Shown piece by piece: positions 10,250 through 22,967 of a DNA stretch of 30,997 nucleotides. A program made the translations under genes and the position numbers. The notes under the pieces are model-generated. The model was not told where the DNA came from and did not search any database. It saw nothing but the letters and a program-made list of their open reading frames with translations. Source of the stretch: Candidatus Xenobia bacterium (GTDB lineage: Bacteria; Vulcanimicrobiota; Xenobia; RGZZ01; DASYBA01); NCBI GenBank assembly GCA_036501005.1, contig DASYBA010000456.1, positions 1 through 30,997 of the forward strand, in the 5' to 3' direction. The first letter of the stretch is position 1. Every line of letters starts with the position of its first letter.

Positions 10250-11644
10250 CCTCCAGGCGGCGCACCAGGCGGACCACGTCCTCCTCTGTCGTTCGATAGT
10301 TGGTGACGCATGCTCGCAATACGGGGCGCCCTCCGCCCAGTCGCGTGGTGGAGATCCAGGCGTCGCCGGAGGCCACCACCGTGCGGGCCAGGGCCTCCAG
10401 ATACGGGAGCGTCCCCCCGTCAGGATGCTCGCCGTCGACAAAGCAGACCAGCGGCAGTCGCGTCTGGTTGACGACCCGCCAGCCGTATCGAGTGAGCTCC
10501 GTGCGGAGAAACTCGCCGACGGCGGTCTGGTGGCGCAAAGCCTGGGCGTAGCCCTCCCAGCCCGCGACGGCCAGGGACATGAGGACCTTCAACCCCATGA
10601 AGCGGCGAGACCACTGCAGAGAGTGTCGATAGGGGTCGACGTGGTCGGCCTCTCTGGGCATGTAGCTGGCCTCCATGTCGAACGTCTGCTCGAGAATGTG
10701 GACATGGCGGGTCAGGTACATGCCGGCCCCCATGGGCACCGACAACCACTTATGGGCATCGAAGGCGATGGAGTCGGCTTGTTCGATCCCGGCCAGCAAA
10801 GCCTGGAGCTCGGGGACCAGAACGGCCGCCCCTCCCCAGGCCGCGTCCACGTGGAACCACAGCCCTTCGGCGCGAGCCAGGGCCGCCAGACGGGGCAGCG
10901 GATCGATGGCGCCGCCGCTGGTCGTCCCCGCCTCGTGCCCACCACCATGAAGGGGGTTTTGCCGGCACGGCGGTCCTCCTCGATGGCGCGGGTGAGGGCG
11001 GCGACGTCCAGGGTCTGGTCCTCCCCGACCGGGACCTCTCGTAGCCCGGCCGCCCCGAGACCCGACACGCGGGCCGCCTTGTGGAACGAGTGGTGGGCCT
11101 GTTCCGATACGTATAGAACGGGCCGCAGCCCGGTCAGCCCTTCGGTGGCAAATTGCGGAAACGACTGCGTCAGTGCCGTCAGAACCGCCGTGTGGTTCGC
11201 CTCGGTGCCCCCGGAGGTGAAGGTGCCGTCTGTGGCCGCGTATCCGAAACGACTGCCGAAGGTCTGGATGACGTGCCGTTCCGCGGCGTTGGCAAACGGA
11301 CTGTGGCTCCACGAGGCCAGTTGCGGATTGAAGGCGGCCACCAGGGTGTCGGCCGCCACCCCCATGGTCGTCGGGGCCGGATTGAAGAGCCCAAAATAAC
11401 CTGGGTGCGACGTGTGGACCTGATCCACCTCCAGCCCTCGAGTGACGTGCGCGACGACCTCCTCCGGCGCCATGGGCCGGCCGAAGTCAAACGGGGCGAG
11501 CAGTTCCGCCGCTCGGTCTCGGGAGGGCGCCACGGGGAAGGTCTCGACCTCAGCGAGGAACTTTTCGACCTCGGATGAGACCCGCTCCCATAGGAGCTGT
11601 CGCTCCCGAGACTCGAGGGTCAGGCGGTCAGGGCTGCTGGGCAA
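10227..11644 (-). pseudogene. Group II pyridoxal-phosphate-dependent amino acid decarboxylase, split by a frameshift near 10930-10940
   Basis: N-terminal part in frame 10712..11644 (SHPGYFGLFNP, FTSGGTEANHTAV, ...PFMVVGT). C-terminal part in frame 10227..11312 (AGTTSGGAIDPL, FHVDAAWGG, FDAHKWLSVPMGAGM with the PLP lysine). The joined reading PFMVVGT-AGTTSGGAIDPL matches the family (compare GAD ATAGTTVYGAFDPL). The local sequence ggcacg-ag-gcggggacgacc needs a 1-nt addition or 2-nt removal to restore the frame. Confidence 0.7.
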
Positions 11645-12161
11645 TCTGCTGCAGAGCGGCGTATCGAGCCTGCGCGGAGTCGGTATATTGGAGGCCGCCC
11701 ACGTTGGTCTGATCCCACGCCGACTTCGCCAGCGAACGCTGCACGTCGGTGCACTGCTGATTGGTGGAGATGGCCAGCAGGGCGTCGCCCGTCATGGCGT
11801 CGGCATCGGGCCACTGGTTGGCCGGGCTGTAGGCGTTCATGCCGACGACGGCCATGACGTGGCCTATCGAACCTGCCACGTGGTTGGCGATGGCAGAGGC
11901 CGCCGCATAACGCGCCTGCGCCGAATTCTGATACTGCATGCCGCCGTGGTTGCCCATGTTCCACCCGAGCCGGGCGATGGTCTTCTCGTCGGGCGTCGTG
12001 TCGTTGTTGCTGAGGATGGAATTAAGTCCGTTGCCCATGAAGACGTCGGCGTCGGGCCACTGGGTGGCCCCGTCGTAAGAGCGCATGGCCTCGGCGGCGA
12101 GTGCGCCCCCGACCTGGCTGTATTGAACCGCGGCGGGCGCGGCGGCAGTAATGGTAGACAT
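11628..12161 (-). CDS. Hypothetical protein with internal tandem duplication of an about 62-aa module (QWPDAD...SAQARYAA)
   Basis: ATG 12161 with AAGGAGA 6 nt upstream. Repeat 1 ATQWPDADVFMGNG...QNSAQARYAAASAIANH. Repeat 2 ANQWPDADAMTGDA...TDSAQARYAALQQIAQ. The ORF-track 364-aa version is rejected because its N-terminal 187 aa are antisense to ruvC. Confidence 0.55.
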   Translation of the reverse strand: MSTITAAAPAAVQYSQVGGALAAEAMRSYDGATQWPDADVFMGNGLNSILSNNDTTPDEKTIARLGWNMGNHGGMQYQNSAQARYAAASAIANHVAGSIGHVMAVVGMNAYSPANQWPDADAMTGDALLAISTNQQCTDVQRSLAKSAWDQTNVGGLQYTDSAQARYAALQQIAQQP

Positions 12162-14072: not shown

Positions 14073-15080
14073 ATGCGCATGCTGAGCGGCGACAAGAAAG
14101 AAGAGGAGGCCCGCTACGACGTCGCACTCCGGCCGAAGACGCTGGCAGAATATATCGGACAGGAGCGCATCAAGGAGAACCTCAAAGTCTTCATCCAGGC
14201 GGCCCGCCAACGCGGCGAACCCCTCGATCACGTGCTGCTGTTCGGACCCCCGGGGCTGGGCAAGACGACGCTGTCGAACGTCATTGCAAAAGAACTCGAG
14301 GTGCAGATCAAGGCGACCTCGGGACCGGCCATGGAGCGAGCCATCGATCTCCTGGTGGTGCTGGGCAACCTGGCGGAAAAGGACGTCCTCTTCATCGATG
14401 AAATCCATCGACTCCCCCGGGTGGTCGAGGAGATTCTCTACCCCGCCATGGAAGACTTCACGTTCGATAGGGTCATCGGCAAGGGGCAGGCGGAGCGGAC
14501 CCGCAAGATCCAGTTGCCCCCCTTCACCCTGGTGGGGGCGACCACCCGGGCGGGCGCCATCTCTTCACCCCTGCGGGGACGCTTCGGGATTGTCCTCACC
14601 CTCGACTACTATAGCGCCGAGAGTCTGCAGGACATCGTGACCCGCAGCGCCGGCCTGCTCGGCATTCCGATATCGGAGGAGGGGGCCCGAGAAATCGCGG
14701 TCCGAGCCCGGGGCACGCCCCGCATCGCCAATCGATTGCTCCGGCGTGTGCGGGACTTCGCCCAGGTGCGAAACGATCCCGAGATCAGCCGGGCGACGGC
14801 CGACTATGCCCTGCAACAGCTAGGGGTCGACCCGTTGGGCCTGGACGAGGTGGACCGGCGCATTCTCGACGTCCTGGTGAAGATGTACGCCGGGCGTCCC
14901 GTGGGCCTCGATACGCTGGCGGCCATGGTGCACGAAGAGTCCAATACCATTGAGGAAGTCTACGAGCCGTATCTCTTGCAGAAAGGCTTCCTGCAAAGAA
15001 CGCCTCGGGGCCGGGCGGCGGCGCCCAAGGCGTTCGAGTATCTGCGGGTGGCGCCCCCTCCGGAGCAGTTGGGCTTCTAG
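14073..15080 (+). CDS. ruvB: Holliday junction DNA helicase RuvB (AAA+ ATPase)
   Basis: Walker [11 protein letters not shown], Walker [10 protein letters not shown], sensor residues. ATG immediately after the ruvA stop. Confidence 0.97.
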
Positions 15081-16111
15081 GCTCTACGACGCCGATCGGC
15101 GTGGAGACAGAGCCCCACCAGCAACACGGCGACGGCCAAAGGAGCCGCGTGTGGGTCAACTTCCGGGGCGGCGGCCGGTCCTACGAACACAAAGGGGTCA
15201 ATGGACGCTCGGAATAGTGCGAAGCCTGGCGTGCCATTGGCAGGGAAACAAAGCGAGACCTGGGCGGTGTCAAAAAATTGCAGATCGGAGTACAGATTCC
15301 CGCATGGCGTGGTAAAAAAACCCGGGTGATAGACGGCCGTGCTGCTGCAGCAGATGGGCAATTGGCCGCACTCGGCGGGAAAGACGCACAGTCCGCTCAA
15401 ACAGGTGGGTGCCGTCACCACCATGTAGCAAACGCCTTCAGGACAGACGCCGCTAAAACATTGGCCTCCGAACGTCACCCGCGCGAAGGTTGAGGCGCGT
15501 CCGGTCCAGGTGGGACCGGGGCAGGAGCAGGCCGGGGTCGGACTGGGTATGACGAAACCTTGGGAAAAACCACAGGCACAAGCGGCCACATCATAGGTTT
15601 GCCCCGGTTGGAGCAAGATCGGCTGAAAGACCTTCATGCTCACGCGGGCACTGGCAGACTCCGCGGCGGTCGGGCAAGCTGTTGGACCAGTCCCGCGGCA
15701 GGCAGTCGGGCAATTGCACGCGACAGCGCCAGCCGTCAGTGTTAGAAAGCCGAAACTGTTGCAGACGCAGGTTCCCACCCTGATACAACTGCTGGAGTTT
15801 GGCCGGATGCTTGAGCGGAAGGCCTGGAGGCTGCCTTTTTGGCAGTACCTGCCGTACCAGCAGAAAATGCTGCCATAGGACCCGCTCGTGGTTCTACTCC
15901 CAGGAAAGCAGGTGTTGCCAAAGCAAGGCTGGGGGCCGTAGAAGCAGAAATTGCTCACGAGATTCCGGGCAGGGCAAAGGCAGGGGCCATAGCAACAAGC
16001 CGGTGCCAGGGCACCAAACGTCGGCGTCGCGGTCGCGGGCCCGACACTGCTCAACCACCACAGCAAGCCCACCAGAACCCCGAGTATCGATCGAATCAGC
16101 GATATCCGCAC
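15077..16111 (-). CDS. Cysteine-rich secreted protein with C-terminal PEP-CTERM-like sorting signal (PEVD motif, hydrophobic helix, RRRRA)
   Basis: GTG 16111 with AGGAGG about 7 nt upstream. Signal peptide [28 protein letters not shown]. About 40 Cys. C-terminus [34 protein letters not shown]. Stop shares CTAG with the ruvB stop. Confidence 0.6.
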
Positions 16112-16137
16112 CGCACCACCTCCTTTTTTCGGAACCT

Positions 16138-16992
16138 TTATGGTAACAGAAGCGTTGAGGGCCTGTCAATGTCCGCGAGCCCCCGGTCGAAGGCTCCGGA
16201 CGTGAACTCCGGCAGGAGCTTGCCGAGCCGCTCGGAGCGCATCGAAAGATCCCGCTGGCGGGGCTCGTCAAAGGGCACGTCCCGGCGGGAAATGGGTTGG
16301 ACCCGGTCCTCGGGGACGCCCACGATGCGCGCCAGTCTGCGGGCCATGTCGAACCGCGACAAGCGCTCCGGCCCGGCCAGATGTACGATGCCGGTCGCTT
16401 GCGCCTCCAACAATCCGCACAGGGCCCAGGCCGCATCCGAATAATCCAGCGGCGACCGCCACTCGTCGGCAAAGGCCTCTATCGAGCCTCCGGCCGACAA
16501 GGTCTCCATGGTCGTATCGAAAAAGCTGCGGCGACGGGACCTGGACCACCCGCACATCAGCGCCATGCGCGCCACCAGGGCGGCAGGGTTCGCCGCCAGC
16601 ACCGCGGCTTCCGAGGCCACCTTGCTGCGGCCGTACGTGGTCACGGGACTGGGGGCGGAAGATTCGACGTAGGGCGCCCCCTCGCCGTCAAAGACCATGT
16701 CGGTGGACAGGTGCACGAACCGCGGGCAGTAAGTGGCCAGGCGGGCCGCCGCGTCGACGTTGACCGCCCAGGCCGCCGGCGGATTTCGATAGCAGTCGGA
16801 GACGGTCGACATGGCGGCGGTGTGGATGACGGCATCGGGCCGGAACGCATCCAGCCGTCGTTGCACCGCTTCGGGGTCGAGGAGATCCAGCTCCGAACGT
16901 CCCCAGCCCTGGACCGTCCACCCCCGGCGCCCAGCCGCCTCCACCACGTAAGGACCTAGCTTGCCGGCCGCCCCGGTCACCACCACACGCAC
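16138..16992 (-). CDS. NAD(P)-dependent sugar-nucleotide reductase, dTDP-4-dehydrorhamnose reductase (RmlD)-like
   Basis: GTG start. MRVVVTGAAGKLG Rossmann motif. Y..K catalytic pair (TYGRSK). Family call by motif. Confidence 0.75.
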   Translation of the reverse strand: MRVVVTGAAGKLGPYVVEAAGRRGWTVQGWGRSELDLLDPEAVQRRLDAFRPDAVIHTAAMSTVSDCYRNPPAAWAVNVDAAARLATYCPRFVHLSTDMVFDGEGAPYVESSAPSPVTTYGRSKVASEAAVLAANPAALVARMALMCGWSRSRRRSFFDTTMETLSAGGSIEAFADEWRSPLDYSDAAWALCGLLEAQATGIVHLAGPERLSRFDMARRLARIVGVPEDRVQPISRRDVPFDEPRQRDLSMRSERLGKLLPEFTSGAFDRGLADIDRPSTLLLP

Positions 16993-20972: not shown

Positions 20973-21827
20973 CTACTGAGCGCGACGTCGTCGCTCGCCC
21001 AGCACGGCGAAGACCGCCAGCAACAAGGCCGTGGGGGCGCGTAGGGACCCGTCGTCCACTTCGGGGGCCCCGGTGGCTGAAGAAACGAGGGCAACGGAAA
21101 GATGCGGATCCATCACTGCCAGGGCGTTAGTGTCAAAAGTGGCAAACACGTGCGCTTCTTCGGCAAACTTCAAGGTCTCGATGGGACCGCTGGCGGTAAA
21201 ATCGAGGGAAAACGTGTCGAAACAGTTGGCCAGTCTGCAGGCTGCGGGACAGCAGGTCTTGGCGCCGCAAATGCACAGGCTGTCCTTACCGTGGGGGCAC
21301 AACCGCCACGTCCGGCAACTGTGGGTGCTGCCTCCGATGCAGATATCCACGTTGCCGCAAGCGTTGCCACAAACACAGGAAGAGGGTGGGACGGAAAAAC
21401 ATGGGGCACCGCAGGTCGAAAACGTCAACCGGTAGTTGCAACCTGTCGTCAGGCCGCTCAAGCAACCCTTGACGTGGATGCCGGCGAAGATGTTGACGCC
21501 CGAGCCGTTGCACGCAAATGCGGTAAACACGATGCTGGGACAAGGAGCCGCATGGGTCTGGACACAGGCAAAGGATCCCAGATCTGCAGACCCGCAGAGC
21601 CCACGATACACCTGGGTCGACGGGCGGCACGTCCGGCCAAAAGAGGGGCACGCCGTCCAGCCGCAAAATGTAGCGGCAGCATTGCAGCCCTTGTGGGTGC
21701 GGAAATCTCCGTTTCCTCCCGCCACGGTGGGCGCCGCATTCGCTTCTACCCCCGGCCTGGCAAGACACACCAGTACCGTGGCCAAAGCCACCAGCACGTG
21801 CGGCCACCGAAAGCCCTTTTGCTGCAT
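20973..21827 (-). CDS. Cysteine-rich secreted protein, paralog of 15077..16111, with the same PEVD-CTERM-like sorting signal
   Basis: ATG 21827 with GAGGAGGG 6 nt upstream. Signal peptide MQQKGFRWPHVLVALATVLVCLARPGVEANA. About 35 Cys. C-terminus SATGAPEVDDGSLRAPTALLLAVFAVLGERRRRAQ. Confidence 0.6.
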   Translation of the reverse strand: MQQKGFRWPHVLVALATVLVCLARPGVEANAAPTVAGGNGDFRTHKGCNAAATFCGWTACPSFGRTCRPSTQVYRGLCGSADLGSFACVQTHAAPCPSIVFTAFACNGSGVNIFAGIHVKGCLSGLTTGCNYRLTFSTCGAPCFSVPPSSCVCGNACGNVDICIGGSTHSCRTWRLCPHGKDSLCICGAKTCCPAACRLANCFDTFSLDFTASGPIETLKFAEEAHVFATFDTNALAVMDPHLSVALVSSATGAPEVDDGSLRAPTALLLAVFAVLGERRRRAQ

Positions 21828-21917
21828 CAATATCCCTCCTCGCCAGGCACGACAAGGAATTTCAATCCAAGGCACCGGATTCCTGTTCCCCACACGCTCG
21901 GCAGGCCCAGACCATGG

Positions 21918-22967
21918 CTAGACAGAGCGCCAGCGCAGCACCATCAAGGTGATGTCGTCGGGAAAGGTGGTCGCGGCCGTGCCGACGTGCTCTCGCAGGC
22001 GGCCCAGCAGATCGATGCTGCTGCCCTCTCCCGCCCCAACCAGGAGTTCGTCGACGCTCATGCGGCCGAGTCGGGAGCCGTCAGCCCGTATCGCATCGAC
22101 CAGGCCGTCGGTGTAGCCAAAGACTCGGTCGCCGCTGTGCAGTTGGCGCCGCTCCTGGGTATACTTGGCCTCCGACAGGACCCCGAGCATGACGCCGGTG
22201 GCCCCCAGCTCCTCGAACGCGCCGTCGTCCAACAGCAACACGGGCTCGTGGCCAGCGCTGGCATAGGTGAGGCTACCGTCCGATAGGTTCAGGACCATGT
22301 AGAACAGCGTGACGAACTTCTCACCCTCCAGGTGGCCAGCCAATCGCTCGTTCAGATAAGCCAGGACCTGGGCGGGATCCGACGTGCGCCCGGGCGCGTC
22401 GGCCAGCAGTCCAATCAATACGGAGGCGGCCAGGGCGGCCGGCGCCCCCTTGCCCGACACGTCGGCCAGGGCCACCATGAGCAGGTCGCCTTCCAGCGTC
22501 GCCTTGATGGCGTCTCCACCGAGCGACCCGGCAGGTTGGAACCAGGTGGCCAGATCTAGACTGGGGTGCCGGGGAACGCCCCGATAGAGCACCTCCTGGA
22601 GGGCCCGGGCCTGATCCAGCTCTCTCGCCATGACGTCGCGCATGGCGGTGATGACGCGCTGCTGATGGGCGAGCCGTGCCGAAACCACGGTGGTCGCGAC
22701 GACCATGACCCCGATGAGGAACTCGTTGGCCGCGACCGGCTGCCAATCAGTCACCTGGCTCTGGTAGGACAAGTCCGAGTGAAGCTGACAGAAGAAAGCC
22801 ACCACCGCCATGACGGCCGCCCAGCGCCAACCCCAGGTCCACCCCGTGAGGGCGACGGGGAAAAGATAGAGGATGCCCGCGACGATGCTCGGGTGGGTGG
22901 ACTCGTCCAGCAGCAGGACCGCCACAAACCACCCGATGACCAATACGGCCTGAACCCGTCTGCTCAT
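21918..22967 (-). CDS. Membrane-anchored PP2C-family (SpoIIE/RsbU-like) serine phosphatase
   Basis: Four N-terminal TM helices, then GGDAIKA...VADVSGKGAPAALAASVL...YTDGL PP2C motifs. Start ATG 22967 (AAGAGG 8 nt upstream) preferred over the ORF-track 23063. Confidence 0.75.
   Translation of the reverse strand: MSRRVQAVLVIGWFVAVLLLDESTHPSIVAGILYLFPVALTGWTWGWRWAAVMAVVAFFCQLHSDLSYQSQVTDWQPVAANEFLIGVMVVATTVVSARLAHQQRVITAMRDVMARELDQARALQEVLYRGVPRHPSLDLATWFQPAGSLGGDAIKATLEGDLLMVALADVSGKGAPAALAASVLIGLLADAPGRTSDPAQVLAYLNERLAGHLEGEKFVTLFYMVLNLSDGSLTYASAGHEPVLLLDDGAFEELGATGVMLGVLSEAKYTQERRQLHSGDRVFGYTDGLVDAIRADGSRLGRMSVDELLVGAGEGSSIDLLGRLREHVGTAATTFPDDITLMVLRWRSV

Follow-up and report, generated by a model that had tools for sequence, protein, structure and literature searches.

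Two cysteine-rich genes on a Candidatus Xenobia contig

The window analyzed here, contig DASYBA010000456.1, is a 30,997-bp stretch of a metagenome-assembled genome (MAG; NCBI locus tags VGO93_). Its host is a soil bacterium of Candidatus Xenobia, a class within the phylum Vulcanimicrobiota (formerly Eremiobacterota). Two genes on the minus strand of the window, p1 and p2 (Table 1), encode Cys-rich proteins with a predicted signal peptide and a short C-terminal tail, and the relation of this tail to the VPEID-CTERM sorting signals associated with exosortase E (XrtE) is the subject of this analysis. The window DNA recurs, with one mismatch (position 22263), on contig Ga0376652_0003396 of the JGI metagenome 3300036780 and in the Logan assembly of SRR11833492. 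A third homologue, p3, is a 306-amino acid (aa) open reading frame (ORF; L003, 117-1037) on a separate 3.4-kb contig of metagenome 3300036780. The tetranucleotide profile of the p3 contig correlated with that of the window at 0.94, the correlations within the window itself ranging from 0.94 to 0.98.

The p1 gene occupies a gap of approximately 1 kb between ruvB, which is convergent and whose stop codon is overlapped by p1, and a gene for an RmlD-like reductase. In this gap, p1 was the sole open frame, with 4-11 stop codons in each of the other frames. The available annotations disagreed on its extent. On the identical metagenome contig, JGI called the full 344 aa, while the Prokaryotic Genome Annotation Pipeline (PGAP) of NCBI called the last 115 aa (15077-15424). 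The alignment with p3 begins at p1 residue 155 (E 2e-19), and the blocks LQPGQ[ST]Y, FGG.C, and VTAPTCL, shared by p1 and p3, are conserved upstream of the PGAP start. Since p3 aligns well upstream of that start, the long form was taken as the better model of p1. In the case of p2, the annotations are reversed, with 185 aa given by JGI and 284 aa by NCBI.

It was also considered whether the long p1 ORF is spurious, that is, whether only the 115-aa form or nothing at all is expressed and the Cys-rich body results from the base composition of a GC-rich genome. The GC content at third codon positions (GC3) of p1 was just 0.68, compared with 0.79-0.88 in the neighboring genes, and PGAP had called the short form. 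Moreover, when 1.84 billion cluster representatives were scanned in full by HMMER with p1, the only hit beyond p1 itself was a 75-aa fragment, which is the end of p3. However, GC content in the p1 frame still peaks at the third codon position, and p1 has a ribosome-binding site, a promoter-like site, and a predicted signal peptide. In addition, p2, whose composition is as unusual as that of p1 in the GC3 comparison, was called full-length by PGAP. Considered together with the p3 alignment, the sole open frame, and the JGI call, these points leave a spurious p1 highly improbable, and the ORF described in the initial annotation was confirmed as real, with corrections.

One of these corrections concerns the cysteines. 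The initial annotation had described a signal peptide followed by about 40 Cys; the signal peptide and the Cys-richness held, while the count was 31 Cys in all, of which 30 lie in the mature part. Signal peptides were predicted for p1, p2, and p3 from heuristic n-, h-, and c-regions with an AxA-like site, and the predicted mature N-terminus of p2, NAAPTVAGGN, resembles the APTVPGN of p3. The number of mature Cys is even in p1 (30) and p2 (24), and p3 has 25. The AlphaFold2 model of p1, with p2 as the sole alignment partner, reached a mean predicted local distance difference test (pLDDT) score of 30.9 and was confident only in the two terminal helices.

The bodies of p1, p2, and p3 had no relative in Pfam, NCBIfam, or PDB-sequence searches. 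A word-seeded protein search with p1 was also empty, yet it had missed the identical 115-aa entry (phmmer 1e-69), and this null result was discarded. Across the public data searched, p1, p2, and p3 are the only members of this family of Cys-rich orphans.

Table 1. Positions of the p1 and p2 genes and of their predicted parts and upstream elements in the window
Feature	Position	Strand	Remarks
p1 complete coding sequence, 344 aa + stop	15077..16111	-	Signal peptide, Cys-rich body, VPEID-type C-terminal tag; NCBI has last 115 aa only (VGO93_14160, HEY4000014.1)
p1 predicted signal peptide, aa 1-28	16028..16111	-	Heuristic n/h/c regions; AlphaFold2 helix at residues 3-22, pLDDT ~70
p1 mature Cys-rich body, aa 29-314	15170..16027	-	286 aa, 30 Cys (10.5%); without relatives in Pfam, NCBIfam, or PDB
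p1 sorting tag, aa 315-344	15080..15169	-	36.2 bits on the hidden Markov model (HMM) of XrtE-adjacent tags; stop codon 15077-15079
GGAGG ribosome-binding site	16119..16123	-	7 nt upstream of p1 GTG start
Promoter-like TTGACA-18-TACCAT	16140..16169	-	10/12 matches, extended TG before -10; consensus match only; inside 3' end of RmlD-like gene
p2 complete coding sequence, 284 aa + stop	20973..21827	-	ATG at 21827; VGO93_14190, HEY4000020.1 in NCBI; signal peptide, 24 mature Cys, tag
p2 predicted signal peptide, aa 1-29 (MQQKGFRWPHVLVALATVLVCLARPGVEA)	21741..21827	-	Heuristic n/h/c regions
p2 sorting tag APEVD-DGSLRAPTALLLAVFAVLG-E-RRRR-AQ-stop	20976..21068	-	24.9 bits on the HMM of XrtE-adjacent tags
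GGAGG ribosome-binding site	21835..21839	-	Upstream of p2 ATG

The conserved tail and the VPEID-CTERM layout

The p1 tail reads APEVD-x19-D-RRRR-A-stop and that of p3 reads APEID-PDRAVLPVAAVLCGFCILS-D-RRRR-GRRQ. In the three-way alignment with p2, A-P-E-x-D and RRRR were invariant and RRRR was in each case preceded by an acidic residue, E in p2 and D in the other two, while the helix varied. The spacing from D to RRRR was 20 aa in both p1 and p2, and only 1, 2, and 4 residues follow RRRR in p1, p2, and p3, respectively, which places the tag at the extreme C-terminus in all three. Outside the tag, the proteins were 29-37% identical, and the tag was the best-conserved block. The tail pattern was present at two sites in the window, where 100 shuffles gave an expectation of 0.00, and no other reading frame of the window has this tail. 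The tripartite, exosortase-type layout proposed initially was borne out, and it is conserved among p1, p2, and p3 more than the rest of the protein. The spacer of 5-6 aa that had been given between PEVD and AP does not apply to p1, where it is 3 aa (PHA).

The kinship of p2 with p1 and p3 lies mainly across the last 42-70 residues. Because the three proteins are homologous at least over this region, their tags were inherited together and not independently recruited. Consequently, the recurrence of a near-identical motif in a second Cys-rich paralog, which the initial annotation had taken as an argument for a dedicated processing system, is real but weak as evidence of such a system. The tail might then be an ordinary uncleaved C-terminal anchor, consisting of a helix and a positive-inside stop-transfer cluster, with APE(V/I)D as a juxtamembrane stretch inherited by three paralogues. 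Just three carriers are known, all mutually related, and the homology of p1 and p2 continues for about 35 aa on the N-terminal side of the motif. However, the motif and the basic cluster are invariant while the helix residues vary freely, and therefore the conservation pattern is that expected of a recognition signal. Moreover, the chance of finding [AV]PE[IV]D exactly 20 residues before [DE]RRRR was estimated, roughly and from typical residue frequencies, at 1e-6 per protein, and the same layout defines XrtE substrates in several phyla, as described below. A plain anchor was therefore considered unlikely.

The tail was searched for with a degenerate DNA pattern, [AV]PE[IVM]D-x19-[DE]-RRRR, written from the tails of p1, p2, and p3. 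This pattern was scanned over 185,579 species, represented by one genome each; 125 matches were listed, and the counts taken from them are lower bounds. A narrower A-type pattern was scanned over JGI metagenomes and returned 24 stretches. The source metagenome 3300036780 was not among these matches and is apparently outside the scanned collection. In the species genomes, tags were regarded as convincing when they formed an in-frame C-terminus that contained a hydrophobic stretch and was closed by a stop no more than 8 codons away. At least 60 convincing tags were found among the 125 listed species-genome matches, and 20 of the 24 metagenome stretches encode small secreted proteins that end in a convincing APEID(P)... 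tag. All 80 of these read [VA]PE[I/M]D-x19-[ED]-RRRR, with a spacing identical to that of p1, p2, and p3. The layout first seen in two proteins is thus carried by the third homologue and by at least 80 convincing tags in other genomes and metagenomes. Among the 80 reference tags, the first position was A instead of V in 29, and the fourth position was I in 75, M in 5, and V in none. The species-genome tags listed were overwhelmingly from Rhodobacterales/Paracoccaceae, with the form VPEIDASAGLLALAAV...WERRRR, and variant tags were found in Planctomycetota (VPEIDPGS...TDRRRR), Stellaceae, and Cellvibrionaceae.

Neighboring XrtE genes were sought with a local HMM in the fetched stretches of 72 loci. 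In 43 of these, an XrtE-like ORF, a fusion of exosortase E and CPBP protease, was present, and its distance to the tag gene was usually 8-600 bp. The tag-adjacent membrane protein is approximately 540 aa long, and the three that were tested, from Planctomycetota, Stellaceae, and Paracoccaceae, scored 208, 235, and 475 bits, respectively, on TIGR04162 "exosortase E/protease, VPEID-CTERM system" (cutoff 150 bits). The tag is therefore tightly linked to XrtE in other phyla, and the tags so linked agree with those of p1-p3 in positional layout.

The curated model of the signal, TIGR04161 (VPEID-CTERM; cutoff 33 bits), gave 48 bits for a Rhodobacterales tag, and its positions 1-29 correspond to VPEID, 19 residues, E, and RRRR, the same length as in the Xenobia tails. 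Because the layout matches these positions one by one, the "PEVD" tail was regarded as a conservative VPEID-CTERM variant and not as a new class. The initial annotation had set PEVD apart as a motif of its own, a distinction that was given up, the more so as p3 reads exactly APEID. The shared features are the extreme C-terminal position, the 19 residues including a transmembrane helix, the acidic residue, RRRR, and the N-terminal signal peptide. The motif itself, [VA]PE[IV]D when p1-p3 are included, agrees in part, with APEID in p3 and APEVD in p1 and p2, and the APEIDP... of planctomycete and soil-metagenome tags is like the tails of p1 and p3. The tails were also scored on an HMM of 42 unique tags that lie beside XrtE; p1, p3, and p2 scored 36.2, 30.9, and 24.9 bits, respectively, while the best of approximately 8,170 non-tag C-termini scored 8.8 bits and a classic PEP-CTERM tail 7.8 bits. 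These scores are partly circular, since the reference tags were retrieved with a pattern derived from p1-p3. Two points are free of this circularity: the family recovered by the pattern is coherent, had already been curated, and has its own neighboring enzyme, and the spacing of the curated model is equal.

TIGR04161 itself gave no match to p1, p2, or p3, either as full proteins or as isolated tails, even at E<=10. However, planctomycete tags beside genuine XrtE also scored only 12.5-14.4 bits on this model, and therefore the miss says little about the Xenobia tails. As the tags of L018 and L119, the two tested, fall far under the cutoff, the curated tag model appears too narrow. In the wider set, Planctomycetota genomes and several unclassified soil and freshwater metagenome contigs (L018, L017, L064, L069, and L119; L120-L143) carry [AV]PEID(P)... 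tags, often adjoining XrtE where the flank sufficed, and the L018 enzyme passes TIGR04162. Several Alphaproteobacteria (L040, L042, L068, L073, L090, and L102) have 2-4 small VPEID-tagged genes in tandem.

Other signal classes were compared with the tails. PEP-CTERM signals proper (TIGR02595/PF07589), which are handled by exosortase A (EpsH), have a near-invariant Pro-Glu-Pro motif (PMC1569441). They share with p1-p3 the Pro-Glu motif followed by a transmembrane helix and a C-terminal basic cluster, the signal peptides, the diverse and poorly conserved carrier proteins, and soil hosts with an outer membrane (PMC1569441). In contrast, p1-p3 read PEV or PEI followed by D, the spacing is longer and fixed, and an acidic residue precedes the basic cluster; no match to these NCBIfam and Pfam models was obtained at E<=10. 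In PEP-CTERM systems, a genome with an EpsH homologue also has several unrelated proteins that bear the tag, and the three carriers known here are related. MYXO-CTERM (TIGR03901) signals likewise combine a C-terminal helix with an Arg cluster, and this model gave the sole sub-threshold NCBIfam match of the p1-p3 tails, at 10-13.9 bits against a cutoff of 20 bits. The MYXO-CTERM signal, processed by myxosortases of the CPBP glutamic protease type, is reported to have an invariant Cys (bioRxiv 10.1101/2023.06.07.544157), whereas p1-p3 tags have no conserved Cys and the p2 tag has none. In the GlyGly-CTERM system, a Gly-Gly motif precedes the helix and the genome encodes a rhombosortase (PMC3237569); the tails have no GG motif and no match to that model, and the window has no rhomboid gene. 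The LPXTG class was also rejected for the p1-p3 tails.

Proposed processing and the putative partner enzyme

From these results, p1, p2, and p3 are interpreted as members of a small, lineage-specific family in Candidatus Xenobia, comprising surface proteins that would be exported by Sec and are probably rich in disulfides, in which the last ~30 residues would form a divergent VPEID-CTERM-type signal processed by an exosortase E-type enzyme encoded elsewhere. We assign this interpretation a probability of roughly 0.6. In the proposed mechanism, the signal peptide would carry the protein over the inner membrane by the Sec route, and the C-terminal helix with the RRRR stop-transfer cluster would retain it there, leaving APE(V/I)D at the periplasmic face of the inner membrane. 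The exosortase E-type enzyme, whose gene would lie at another place in the genome, would recognize the motif and cleave at this site. Such an enzyme would combine a Cys-transpeptidase-like EpsH domain with a fused CPBP/CAAX glutamic protease domain, and the Cys-rich, probably disulfide-bonded domain would then be released or transferred to the cell surface. We infer the cleavage of p1 and p2, the final location of the proteins, and the presence of an XrtE in the Xenobia genome from this comparison with known systems. Only one member of the phylum has been cultured, and this diderm bacterium has a Gram-negative envelope with an outer membrane (PMC9758169), which fits an exosortase-type system (PMC9758169; PMC1569441). 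The VPEID-CTERM/XrtE kind of system is already known; what is new here is the type of cargo, the phylum, and a signal that escapes the curated model.

Several points weigh against this interpretation. Neither the 31-kb window nor the 3.4-kb p3 contig has an exosortase, CPBP protease, or rhomboid gene, in agreement with the initial annotation, which had reported no exosortase, archaeosortase, or rhombosortase in the window. Elsewhere, XrtE usually adjoins the gene of its substrate, while p1 and p2 are dispersed with no XrtE within 31 kb. The best 120 of 528 hits of an XrtE profile search, a list that could not be filtered by taxon, included no protein named as Xenobia, and the few organism-named hits among them were all from Planctomycetota. 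Vulcanimicrobiota/Eremiobacterota were likewise not among the listed matches of the tail scan. The reference cargo is mostly small (55-237 aa from stop to stop) and Cys-poor, compared with 284-344 aa and 24-30 Cys in p1 and p2, and the V of p1 and p2 at the I/M position occurs in 0 of the 80 reference tags. The TIGR04161 miss also belongs here, and, since the carriers are homologues, part of the likeness of their tails could be due to common descent. With regard to the dispersed genes, the known system likewise includes substrates at a distance from XrtE, since none was present in the fetched stretches (up to 8 kb) of L068, L073, and L090.

The lack of a processing enzyme in the window, on the p3 contig, and among the best 120 profile hits also speaks for the uncleaved anchor considered above. 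Moreover, the same set of observations can be read as a genuine sorting signal that is served by another lineage-specific enzyme, either a different exosortase subtype or a stand-alone, "myxosortase-like" CPBP glutamic protease, in a distinct "PEVD-CTERM" system of Eremiobacterota. The tags undetected by TIGR04161, the V in place of the I/M of all 80 XrtE-type tags, the cargo unlike typical XrtE substrates, the dispersed genes without an adjacent enzyme, and the weak MYXO-CTERM match as the only one in NCBIfam would all be consistent with such an enzyme. However, the tail aligns with the VPEID type position by position, down to the acidic residue that precedes RRRR, p3 reads exactly APEID, and tags beside genuine XrtE in Planctomycetota fail TIGR04161 in the same way. 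In addition, the invariant Cys of myxosortase signals is missing, and the MYXO-CTERM score stays under its cutoff. Processing by another enzyme was therefore judged rather unlikely. A bolder form of this idea, in which Eremiobacterota/Xenobia would use an undescribed sortase-like enzyme other than XrtE to display private, disulfide-knotted surface proteins, and in which the likeness to VPEID-CTERM would stem from convergence or from a very ancient origin, seems quite improbable.

Implications and neighboring genes

If the link to XrtE is true, VPEID-type sorting would reach beyond Rhodobacterales into a soil phylum that is mostly uncultured. It would also act on a new kind of cargo, namely large orphan proteins that are rich in Cys and whose genes lie apart from that of the enzyme. 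TIGR04161, which is tuned to Rhodobacterales tags, under-calls the signal class, as the tag was found beside XrtE in Planctomycetota and on soil metagenome contigs. Such surface proteins are therefore missed or mis-annotated in MAGs, since PGAP also cut p1 to 115 aa. A full-text search of one paper collection returned no paper with VPEID-CTERM and none with exosortase together with Eremiobacterota. To our knowledge, no tested function of XrtE has been described; thus, a cargo with a recognizable folded domain could be a useful experimental handle.

Beside p1, a gene of the RmlD/epimerase family (16138-16992, minus strand) lies on the same strand and ends 26 nt upstream of p1. A link between a sugar-nucleotide enzyme and a tagged protein is possible at this site, and it would recall the association of PEP-CTERM proteins with exopolysaccharide genes (PMC1569441).

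Three further ORFs of the window were recorded. A 177-aa ORF (11628-12161, minus strand) has an internal duplication, with QWPDAD..G..L...QY..SAQARYAA occurring twice, and belongs to no Pfam family. The ORF at 5616-6527 (plus strand) encodes 303 aa with a signal-peptide-like N-terminus, many GGGGGFH/GGFH repeats, and a Pro/Tyr-rich stretch, again with no Pfam family. Finally, the 826-aa ORF at 547-3027 (minus strand) matched the Pfam families MVP_shoulder (5e-24) and Vault_3 (3e-7), with a weak match to Band_7, and resembles the major vault protein.

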